Sequence record: OL362041.1
Source: Escherichia phage vB_Eco_OMNI12
Length of the DNA stretch: 64,000 nt
Direction: 5' to 3' (one strand)
Position numbers and translations under genes: made by a program. Of the stretch, positions 41,957 to 63,916 are shown piece by piece. The notes below the pieces were generated by a model. That model made no database searches and was not told where the DNA came from. It saw nothing but the letters and a program-made list of their open reading frames with translations. The first letter of the stretch is position 1; the number at the start of each line of letters is the position of its first letter.

Positions 41957-42427
41957 TTAATCATGTTTCCACACCCCATCGGTATTTGACCAAAGCCGCT
42001 GATTATCTGATCCTCTCCACAGCTTTTTGGTCGGAAGATTTTTCTCATACTTCCCATCAATAATAACATCAACATATTTAAGCATTTCTAGTTGTTTAAT
42101 ATCTTCAAACTTATATCCTGTCCACAACCAAATGCTTTTATTTGGATAAAGATTTTTTACTGTTTGAACAATGCAATGAATAACATCTCGATTATCAGGA
42201 TAGAGAGGGTCTCCTCCAGTTATAGTTAATCCTTCTATATAATCATTATTCAAACATTCAATTAATTGTTCTAGTGTTTCACCAGTGAATGGAATACCAT
42301 TTCTAGCATTCCATGTTGATTTATTATAACACCCTTCGCATTTATGCAAACAACCTGTAACGAAAAGAACGGTCCTGCATCCAGGACCATTCACAAAGCA
42401 GCACGGGTATATTCTGTCATAATTCAT
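41957..42427 (-). CDS. nrdG: Anaerobic ribonucleotide reductase activating protein NrdG (radical SAM)
   Basis: 156 aa; CxxxCxxC-type cluster GCLHKCEGCYN. Confidence 0.9.
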   Translation of the reverse strand: MNYDRIYPCCFVNGPGCRTVLFVTGCLHKCEGCYNKSTWNARNGIPFTGETLEQLIECLNNDYIEGLTITGGDPLYPDNRDVIHCIVQTVKNLYPNKSIWLWTGYKFEDIKQLEMLKYVDVIIDGKYEKNLPTKKLWRGSDNQRLWSNTDGVWKHD

Positions 42428-62408: not shown

Positions 62409-62729
62409 TTATTCTTTAAATCTAATCAATTTATTCATAGACTTTGAAACTTCTGCACGAACCTCATGTAGATTTTTGAGCTGTTCAAGACGCTGCTCAT
62501 AGTAAGCAATTTCATCTTCTTCGAGACAGTCCTGTGAATCTTCTTTAAGATACCGTGCATAGTCCTGGAAAGCGTTACGGACTACTTCCTGGAAGTCATC
62601 AAGACTTTGAATTTTCTTAGGAGCAGCAGACACACGACGAGGGGCAGTATAATACTCATAACCAAACCCTGCGCTTAATTGAGCCATTAATATTTTTCCT
62701 CTGGTTGGAACACAGCACGACAAGCCCAC
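62409..62729 (-). CDS. Hypothetical protein (106 aa)
   Basis: ORF. Confidence 0.4.
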
Positions 62730-62989
62730 ATACTAGCTTCTTTGAGTTTCGTTTTAGCAATAGCTAACTGATCGAGGCTTTCAGCATAATTCTTCGCGAG
62801 TTCAAAGTCTTCGCAATTATCTAGTGCTTCCCAGAATTCATCATATAAAGCATCAAAGATAAGTCCTAAACGAACTTCAGCGTCTTTAATAGCATTTACT
62901 TTACCGATTTTTTCGTCGGTATGTGGCTTATAACCTTTAATATCTTCAATCATATTTGACTTCCTCACCAGTACATAAATCGTATTCAA
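62687..62989 (-). CDS. Hypothetical protein (100 aa)
   Basis: ORF. Confidence 0.4.
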
Positions 62990-63167
62990 CTAAACGAATA
63001 GGTTCATGAATGCCATATCCCTGAACAGAAATTTCTGTCGTAGGATAAATTCCACTAATATCACCCATATTCCACGCTTCATTAAATTGCTGTTCGCCTG
63101 AATTACTAAACCATTCTGCGAAAGCATTTAACACATCTTTAGAACCTTCAATAATTATCTTTGCCAT
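62946..63167 (-). CDS. Hypothetical small protein (73 aa)
   Basis: ORF. Confidence 0.4.
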   Translation of the reverse strand: MAKIIIEGSKDVLNAFAEWFSNSGEQQFNEAWNMGDISGIYPTTEISVQGYGIHEPIRLVEYDLCTGEEVKYD

Positions 63168-63529
63168 TACAAGCTCTCAGTAAAGGTACGAGCGATAACG
63201 TCGCGCTGCTGTTCCGGAGTCAGAGAGTTAAAGCGAACTGCATAACCGGATACACGGATGGTCAGCTGCGGATATTTTTCCGGATGCTTAACTGCATCTT
63301 CCAGAGTTTCACGACGCAGAACGTTAACGTTCAGGTGTTGACCACCTTCAATTTTAACTGTAGGCTGTTGCTCAATTTCAATTTCACGGGCATGCAAACC
63401 ATAGAAAATTTCTGGGTCTACAAAAGAGTCCTCTTTAAAGGTTTTAGAGACAATAATTCGTGCTTGAATACCATCTTCAAAATAAATAGTACCTTTATGT
63501 GTGCCTTCAAGAATTTGATATGCTTTCAT
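63167..63529 (-). CDS. Autonomous glycyl radical cofactor (GrcA/YfiD-like; T4 Y06I-type)
   Basis: C-terminal 60 aa essentially identical to E. coli GrcA including glycyl radical motif RVSGYAV; 3-prime half is GC-rich and host-like. Confidence 0.8.
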
Positions 63530-63535
63530 ATAACC

Positions 63536-63916
63536 TCAATTAGAAAATAATTTTATCCAAGATTGTTCTTTAATTAAAAATGGCTCAGAATCATATGCCA
63601 TTAAACTTTGAGTAATTAATCCTTTAAATGGTCCATCAATAAATTCCATGGTAAAATATGGAATTTTATTCATTAATCTTGCATTAGGAGCAGTGCACAA
63701 AACTCTGCATCCTTTGAATACACCTTTTTGTAATTTGTATTGCTTGGGATAAAATTCGCTCAAGACGTTGTTATTTGCCAAAATTTCAAAATGATTCACC
63801 AATTTATTTTTAATAGTTTTTGGCGAAAAATAAAGATATTCGAAAAGTTGCGTATCTGTCATCATTGCATTCCAATTACGAAAAACTGCGGACGAGTAAT
63901 ACCGCCAATGCAGCAT
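63536..63916 (-). CDS. Hypothetical protein (126 aa)
   Basis: ORF; start uncertain. Confidence 0.4.
   Translation of the reverse strand: MLHWRYYSSAVFRNWNAMMTDTQLFEYLYFSPKTIKNKLVNHFEILANNNVLSEFYPKQYKLQKGVFKGCRVLCTAPNARLMNKIPYFTMEFIDGPFKGLITQSLMAYDSEPFLIKEQSWIKLFSN

Follow-up and report, generated by a model that had tools for sequence, protein, structure and literature searches.

Recurrent, host-specific overwriting of the 3' half of a phage gene, vs.6, by host grcA is strongly indicated in T4-like phages

How does a strictly lytic phage come to carry, inside one of its own genes, a run of DNA identical to that of its host? T4-type phages are strictly lytic, destroy the host DNA and use modified cytosine, and to our knowledge their genomes are generally held to show little similarity to the host at the DNA level. 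The question is raised by a gene located at positions 63167 to 63529, minus strand, of a 64,000-nucleotide (nt) stretch of Escherichia phage vB_Eco_OMNI12 (OL362041.1). This whole stretch, referred to here as the window, is a segment of a Tequatrovirus (T4-like) genome. The gene (120 amino acids (aa), ATG to TAA) is the orthologue of T4 vs.6, whose product Y06I is a GrcA-like autonomous glycyl-radical cofactor. A first-pass annotation, made from the letters alone, had read it as a relatively recent fusion of a host-derived segment to a phage N-terminus. The analysis described here makes it highly probable that vs.6 is instead a full-length, diverged phage grcA, whose 3' domain DNA has been repeatedly and host-specifically overwritten by host grcA through gene conversion.

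The extent of the shared DNA was defined with an ungapped alignment of vs.6 and E. coli grcA anchored on their stop codons. Gene nt 179 to 353, which encode the structured glycyl-radical domain, match grcA at 175 out of 175 positions, and the sole mismatches from there to the stop are two synonymous ones in the final 10 nt. This tract occupies positions 63177 to 63351, minus strand, and corresponds to residues 60 to 118 of the phage protein (GrcA 67 to 125). At the protein level residues 61 to 120 are identical to GrcA 68 to 127, the RVSGYAV motif included. Both the near identity of the C-terminal half to GrcA and the host origin of its DNA, which the first-pass annotation had proposed, were thus borne out by the alignment, and the limits it had given by eye (about 63170 to 63360) were off by no more than about 10 nt. 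When blastn was run against 5,426 complete E. coli genomes, gene nt 179 to 363 found grcA at 98.9% identity in every one of them; the 175-nt tract itself was at least 99% identical in 5,156 of these genomes and 100% identical in many. The tract was also the sole megablast match of the whole window, searched in three pieces, to the same genomes.

On both sides of the tract the resemblance stops abruptly. Upstream of nt 178, a protein-guided alignment with E. coli grcA retains only 55 out of 114 nt and 14 out of 38 aa, which is near random. This 5' half (positions 63352 to 63529, minus strand; gene nt 1 to 178, that is codons 1 to 59 and the first base of codon 60) is AT-rich, phage-type and encodes a diverged GrcA N-half. 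At the other end the last 10 nt of the gene (positions 63167 to 63176, minus strand; ..G AGC TTG TAA) carry the states of the phage family and form the 3' boundary of the tract, and 3' of the stop codon there is no DNA similarity between the phage and the grcA locus. Inspection of the 5' junction by eye found GGTGG there and no full Chi site. An assembly artefact or contamination was considered as the source of the patch and rejected, as about 640 independent phage records, those of T4, T2 and the RB phages among them, have an identical patch in frame.

A short tandem repeat, GAAATT GAAATT GAG (EIEIE; positions 63371 to 63385, minus strand; gene nt 145 to 159), is situated about 20 nt 5' of the conversion junction and is a hotspot of insertion and deletion: vB_VIPECOOM03 has gained one 6-nt unit (122 aa) and OES_C-2 has lost one (118 aa). 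The codon that follows the repeat (Q, P, S, T or H at residue 54) is the most variable codon of the gene.

The base composition changes at the same place. The fraction of guanine plus cytosine (GC) is 0.339 in the 5' half, with 0.203 at third codon positions (GC3), and rises to 0.49 and about 0.42, respectively, in the tract, values equal to those of E. coli grcA. Of all the 175-nt stretches in the 64 kb, the tract alone has a GC of at least 0.491 (background 0.341 +/- 0.041, z 3.7), and a GC step of the size of that at the junction is seen at 0.3% of positions. The contrast between a GC-rich, E. coli-like 3' half and an AT-rich, phage-like 5' half, noticed in the first-pass annotation, is therefore real, the composition of the gene being far from uniform.

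Could the nucleotide identity be kept or produced by selection, through convergence of codon usage or a function at the RNA level, rather than by transfer? The protein is under very strong purifying selection, since 60 out of 61 residues are those of the host, and identical tails occur in several phage genera. However, homologues from a Slopekvirus and a Pseudotevenvirus (Klebsiella phage 150040 and Enterobacter phage EC-F1) encode the same amino acids with 28 out of 59 codons that differ synonymously from E. coli, and the equivalent of the tract is in their case only about 83% identical to E. coli grcA. Consequently protein conservation does not explain the identity of the tract, which exceeds what such conservation would lead one to expect. 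Nor is such a run usual between bacterial genes: when grcA genes of different bacteria are compared in register, their longest exact runs have a median length of 20 nt (95th percentile 35, maximum 81), whereas the run in vs.6 measures 175 nt. Where phage and host have the same residue, the codon is identical in 58 out of 60 cases in the C-half and in 6 out of 14 in the aligned N-half. Finally, as described below, coliphage tracts follow E. coli and Klebsiella-phage tracts follow Klebsiella alleles, down to species-specific synonymous variants. Taken with these observations, selection acting in the place of transfer is extremely improbable.

We then considered how the host DNA is placed in the gene. 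In the simplest case vs.6 would be a chimera made de novo, in which illegitimate recombination attached a piece of host grcA to an unrelated phage open reading frame (ORF); the sharp end of grcA nucleotide similarity at nt 178 and the strong difference in composition between the halves are what such an event would leave. The N-half tells otherwise. Profiles of this half built from 10 phage and 10 bacterial GrcA sequences were aligned by hhalign with a probability of 97.2% (expect value (E) 4e-11, 27% identity, 60 columns), and phmmer aligned vs.6 aa 22 to 120 to residues 28 to 127 of the GrcA/YfiD NMR structure 6OWR_A (E 9e-42, PDB sequences). Judged by these profile and sequence alignments the N-terminal half of the vs.6 protein is a diverged homologue of the GrcA N-half. 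Moreover both halves are present in all 18 phage homologues that we extracted, which come from Tequatro-, Mosig-, Jiaoda-, Slopek-, Pseudoteven- and Krischvirus, Aeromonas T4-like phages, T5-like phages and a jumbo Yersinia phage. Compared with 58 bacterial grcA genes, most of the 3' halves reach only 70-88% identity. The T5-likes, the Aeromonas phages, Krischvirus and the jumbo phage have the two-part architecture without host-identical DNA.

The 3' end of the gene is equally informative. The final 10 nt have the states GAG AGY YTR, which are common to Slopek-, Pseudoteven- and Mosigviruses and are not those of E. coli, and the host DNA is therefore an internal patch. These 10 nt may have stayed phage-type because of a likely ribosome-binding region and the overlapping start of vs.5 (TAATG); in Citrobacter phage Miller a ribosome-binding site is annotated at the equivalent position. 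The 5' half of E. coli grcA had no DNA match in 50,697 phage records. The homology of the N-half, the presence of both halves in all lineages and the phage-type end together indicate that the 3' half of an existing gene was overwritten, that is, gene conversion. A de novo chimera, which would further have to account for tracts from different hosts in the same frame after near-identical phage 5' halves, is highly unlikely. Of the earlier reading, the host origin of the segment and the phage character of the 5' half stand; the fusion does not, given that the N-half is itself a GrcA homologue, that the last 10 nt are phage-type and that both halves occur in all the phages examined.

Which partner was the donor? 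Intragenic recombination between host and phage has been reported to run both ways for cyanophage psbA (PMC1484495), and the 3' halves of bacterial grcA genes might in principle have been copied from phages. Against this, the GC3 of the tract equals that of each host (0.426 in both E. coli and the window; 0.667 in both K. pneumoniae and the phage Nispero) and not that of the phage 5' halves, which is 0.20-0.24 throughout (0.237 in Nispero). In E. coli grcA the divergence from other enterobacteria is congruent between the 5' half and the 3' half, and the allele is, as said above, nearly invariant in the species. In addition, the changes by which phage tracts depart from the E. coli allele are mainly GC to AT: 13 against 5 (p = 0.06 in a binomial test against base composition), or 13 against 3 (p = 0.011) when two changes at the tract boundary are left out. 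This bias is as predicted by amelioration towards a genome of 34% GC, and the phage variants look like decay products of the host allele. The host is the donor of the tract, and the probability that we would give to reverse transfer is close to nil.

A tail at least 95% identical to that of E. coli grcA is present in about 640 phage records. Among the matches listed, the identical stretch starts at the same base in all but UFV-AREG1, where it starts one base earlier, and its 3' end varies in Tequatroviruses: it is reached earlier in GiZh and UFV-AREG1 and later in OES_C-2. A scan of IMG/VR with a profile of the N-half gave 16 loci, mostly known isolates. One Mosigvirus-type contig among the IMG/VR sequences (L115) differs from the window at 18 out of 178 positions in the 5' half and at 0 out of 175 in the tract (Fisher p = 5e-6); its tract is also free of differences from E. 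coli (0/175), and its last 10 nt are Mosig-type. Tequatroviruses and Mosigviruses differ from each other by 18-19 positions in the 5' half and by 0-4 in the tract; inside the Mosigvirus group the two parts diverge at similar rates (3-5 differences in the tract, 4-6 in the 5' half). In a neighbour-joining tree of the tract, the Tequatro- and Mosigvirus tails grouped with E. coli with 97% bootstrap support, and monophyly of the Tevenvirinae tails received 0%. The age that the first-pass annotation had assigned to the event needs qualification in this light: the tract is far younger than the split between Tequatrovirus and Mosigvirus and appears to have been renewed repeatedly, but it is not private to one phage.

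A second series of tracts was found in Klebsiella phages. The reference gene of K. pneumoniae was taken from chromosomes mislabelled as plasmids in PLSDB, and its grcA tail is 88% identical to the E. coli tail. It matched 106 phage records at 95-99% identity; among the matches listed these were Jiaodavirus-type phages, mostly isolated on Klebsiella. The tract of KPV15 agrees with K. pneumoniae grcA at 160 out of 162 positions and that of a metagenomic phage (L134) at 161 out of 162. Between the window and KPV15 the tract is 87.7% identical, exactly the value for E. coli against K. pneumoniae, and the encoded E. coli and Klebsiella tracts differ in two residues (LEDAVK versus LLDAVE). A metagenome scan for Klebsiella-type grcA then returned 42 bacterial copies, representing several alleles, and two Jiaodavirus-type phage contigs, L130 and L134. 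L134 and the K. pneumoniae allele match exactly over a run of 158 nt. In L130 the exact run measures 155 nt and is shared with a different bacterial allele, L128/L138, which is 90.7% identical to K. pneumoniae; L138 lies on a 430-kb contig. The two phages differ from each other at 3 out of 178 positions in the 5' half and at 12 out of 162 in the tract. The distal tract of Nispero has four out of four diagnostic variants in common with the alleles L132/L142, and RCIP0102 has five in common with the allele L165. As the Jiaodavirus tracts match different alleles, there were several independent donors.

Three observations concern the Klebsiella records themselves. The vs.6 homologue of KPV15 (NC_055715.1, 222-583) is frameshifted in the 5' half and annotated as two ORFs, and is either a pseudogene or the result of a sequencing error; even so, no other isolate has a tract closer to K. 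pneumoniae grcA. CP125156.1, a 5.37-Mb K. pneumoniae replicon filed as 'plasmid unnamed2', looks like a mislabelled chromosome. LR134122.1, a 568-kb K. aerogenes 'plasmid', carries the chromosomal genes grcA and srmB, and its grcA has a 1-nt insertion in the record.

These comparisons also bear on whether the tract was acquired once, in the ancestor of the E. coli-infecting Tevenvirinae, and has been inherited vertically since with slow evolution of the tract. A 5' boundary common to the roughly 640 phage records would follow naturally from such a history, as would the similar rates of the two halves inside Mosigvirus. On the other hand, the excess of differences in the 5' half between the two genera, the variable 3' end-points among Tequatroviruses and the derivation of Jiaodavirus tracts from several distinct Klebsiella-type alleles behind near-identical 5' halves all speak against it, and we regard a single ancient acquisition as very unlikely. 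The alignments thus establish the identity of the converted segment, its boundaries, the direction of transfer and the multiplicity of the conversion events. From the recurrence of host-specific tracts it follows that the 3' half of vs.6 in Tevenvirinae evolves in concert with the grcA of the infected host.

Does the same apply outside these genera? No host-identical tract was found in Slopek-, Pseudoteven- and Krischvirus, T5-likes, Aeromonas phages or Eneladusvirus, which are 70-86% identical to the best bacterial allele, the sampling of their hosts being thin, and the longest exact runs in these phages lie inside the bacterial background. In two pairs of closely related Klebsiella and Raoultella phages the differences are concentrated in the 3' half: KP179 and PKO111 differ at 20 positions in the 3' half of vs.6 and at 8 in the 5' half, and 150040 and Rpl1 at 13 and 3, respectively, the Rpl1 differences being clustered in about 20 nt that match a Klebsiella/Raoultella-type grcA (LLDAVEH). 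This pattern suggests that short conversion patches may occur outside Tevenvirinae too.

The tract and the recorded host do not always agree. Tequatroviruses from Yersinia (PST, phiD1, fPS-2 and ZN18) or Salmonella (SG1) keep an E. coli-type tract, and the 'Salmonella' phage PSE-D1 has a K. pneumoniae-type tract (97.1%). It may be the usual natural host, and not the host of isolation, that the tract reflects.

Several points weigh against repeated, host-specific conversion or limit how far it can be taken. For the Tequatrovirus/Mosigvirus pair, a fresh conversion from E. coli is inseparable from the passage of a tract, converted earlier, from one phage genus to the other in a co-infection, because both routes give the same sequence; the different Klebsiella-type donors, by comparison, cannot be explained by passing a converted tract between co-infecting phages. 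The exact clade of Jiaodavirus with K. pneumoniae received a bootstrap of only 18-25%, because the Jiaodavirus tails are mosaics. The exact-clade bootstrap was consequently replaced by nearest-neighbour bootstraps and the comparison of diagnostic sites: the nearest-neighbour values were 100% for KPV15, 94% for Nispero and 84% for RCIP0102, and only 51-68% for PKO111 and KP179. As T4 degrades host DNA and has modified cytosine, incorporation would have to be by copying. The recombination pathway and any selective benefit are inferred, and in the literature consulted no contribution of vs.6 to phage growth in vivo was found.

With these reservations, conversion might proceed as follows. During infection the phage would acquire the tract by homologous recombination with, or template copying from, host DNA; recombination-dependent replication of the T4 UvsX/gp46/47 type is a candidate pathway and could copy host fragments. 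The 5' limit of the tract would be set by the end of phage-host homology, and the 3' limit by homology together with the need to keep the initiation region of vs.5. Once present, a host-identical tract should make further conversion easier and could tie the lineage to the host allele, and between conversions the tract decays towards the AT-richness of the phage. Escape from this cycle seems to have occurred in lineages whose tails have drifted to less than about 85% identity (T5-likes, Krischvirus and others). A stronger version, in which the 3' half of vs.6 is in continuous adaptive concerted evolution, conversion re-matches the domain to the PflB/PflA of the current host and the host-identical tract is a self-reinforcing trap, is a tentative proposal that we consider possible but rather doubtful.

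What does the converted domain do? The only Pfam match of the vs.6 protein is Gly_radical (PF01228), at aa 60 to 101 (E 2.5e-18; 67 bits against a cut-off of 22.2), which covers profile positions 65 to 106 of 106. The protein fits the GrcA/YfiD type (PF01228; IPR011140), a small stand-alone glycyl-radical domain of the ~14 kDa class with no catalytic barrel. The predicted site of the radical is Gly95, encoded by GGT at positions 63245 to 63247 (minus strand) within RVSGYAV (motif RVxG[FWY]). Gly95 corresponds to GrcA G102, because the alignment offset is 7 residues, and to PflB G734, the radical position of pyruvate formate-lyase (PFL) (PMC8683613). At the sequence level vs.6 aa 58 to 120 match PFL residues 697 to 759 (1H16, 2PFL; E 5e-26), and the C-terminal domain is thus the probable equivalent of PFL ~693-759, with its beta strand, Gly loop and C-terminal helix.

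Y06I and E. coli YfiD are the two experimentally validated 'spare part' proteins, which restore O2-cleaved PFL in vitro (Wagner et al. 2001, as cited in PMC8683613). The first-pass annotation had named T4 Y06I as a homologue able to repair oxygen-damaged PFL. The homology is confirmed by 98.6% nt identity to T4 vs.6 (100% to Escherichia phage EC.W14-2) and the same neighbourhood, and the in vitro rescue is the one described by that source. Since the proteins of the window and of T4 differ by 2 aa (98% identity), the same spare-part role is likely for the phage protein studied here. In YfiD, the structured half (residues 61-127) duplicates PFL 693-759, and the disordered N-half is needed for binding to cleaved PFL and for efficient installation of the radical (PMC8683613). 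The tract is an almost exact counterpart of the structured half of YfiD, and the diverged 5' half is the counterpart of the disordered one.

In infected cells, O2 would cleave host PflB at its glycyl radical (G734), the vs.6 protein would dock its C-terminal glycyl-radical domain into the cleaved enzyme, and the host activase PflA would place a radical on Gly95. PFL activity would thereby be regained, and the formation of acetyl-CoA and formate could continue in a microaerobic infection. Class III (anaerobic) ribonucleotide reductase, encoded by nrdD, uses formate as reductant. The window holds nrdD (97.5% identical to T4), nrdH and nrdC, and a link between PFL repair and the supply of deoxyribonucleotides to the phage is plausible. 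By blastn nrdD, nrdH and nrdC match T4 over almost their full length; for nrdG, 174 out of 471 nt of the T4 gene match the window (98.9%, positions 41957 to 42130), and the remainder of nrdG, like the mobC region, may have diverged from T4 or been rearranged.

The surroundings of vs.6 are those of T4. The gene order vs.7, vs.6, vs.5, vs.4, vs.3, regB, vs.1 is kept, with vs.7, vs.5, vs.4 and regB collinear and 95-97% identical, and the Pfam matches RegB and SLT (vs.1) are present in the window. Directly upstream lies the vs.7 homologue (positions 63536 to 63916, minus strand; 95.8% nt identity to T4 vs.7), and a GAGG Shine-Dalgarno sequence, read in the sequence 4 nt before the vs.6 ATG (positions 63534 to 63537, minus strand), overlaps its TGA stop codon. 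The vs.5 homologue (positions 62946 to 63167, minus strand; 94.9% nt identity to T4 vs.5) overlaps the vs.6 stop with its start (TAATG). Two genes downstream of vs.6, the vs.4 homologue (positions 62687 to 62989, minus strand) has a Pfam Acb2/Tad1 hairpin domain (E 2e-20), which we take to be that of a family of phage 'sponge' proteins sequestering cyclic-nucleotide immune signals.

In all, the locus is a recurrent and unusually clean example of gene conversion from a host to lytic phages, here those of the T4 family. It makes vs.6 a clean natural system for measuring how frequently virulent phages copy host DNA and the homology that this needs, and the tract a possible marker of the recent host species of uncultured Tevenvirinae. 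It also points to PFL repair as a function that phages keep closely matched to the host. Were the adaptive version true, the tract would be a readable record of the recent host and a natural reporter of host-to-lytic-phage recombination rates. There is a practical side as well: grcA has been proposed as a PCR/qPCR marker for Straboviridae coliphages (PMC12845203, Pathogens 2026), and primers lying in the 3' half would find their target in the chromosomes of all E. coli examined as well.

How does vs.6 compare with what is known? The gene, its in vitro function and intragenic host-phage recombination as a phenomenon were already known, and the recurrent host-specific patching of vs.6 is apparently unreported. 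We found no published account of a vs.6/grcA mosaic at the DNA level or of its host-specific renewal, though older or subscription T4 literature may hold prior notice, and DNA identity with the host is not mentioned in PMC8683613, PMC1524935, PMC12845203 or PMC13450708. Homologues of the vs.6 protein are present in 1,591 phage records (tblastn), many of them already annotated GrcA. Like T4 vs.6 and E. coli GrcA/YfiD, the window protein has the C-terminal 60 aa of GrcA, and its neighbourhood is that of T4; unlike GrcA, it has an N-half that is only ~27% identical and is 7 residues shorter. The other phage grcA-like genes (Tequintavirus/T5-likes, Krischvirus, Slopekvirus, Pseudotevenvirus, Aeromonas T4-likes and Eneladusvirus) likewise encode a two-part protein with an almost invariant C-domain, but, in contrast to the window, they have no host-identical tract and represent the unconverted or long-ameliorated state.

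The closest parallel is provided by psbA and psbD, host-like photosynthesis genes of T4-like cyanophages (Zeidner et al. 2005; Sullivan et al. 2006, PMC1484495). In psbA and psbD, patchy %G+C, host-matching segments and phylogenetic incongruence were interpreted as signs that the host and phage copies had exchanged segments. As in psbA, identity to the host changes abruptly within vs.6 (175/175 against 55/114), the composition is patchy and matched to the donor (GC3 0.20 against 0.43 in the window, 0.24 against 0.67 in Nispero), and the segments are phylogenetically incongruent, with several independent events. In contrast to psbA, the patch in vs.6 is single, sharply bounded and 100% identical, and the donor and the direction are therefore unambiguous. 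It also differs in lying always on the same domain, in enterobacterial T-even phages that include T4 itself, and in that alleles of different host species follow almost identical phage flanks.

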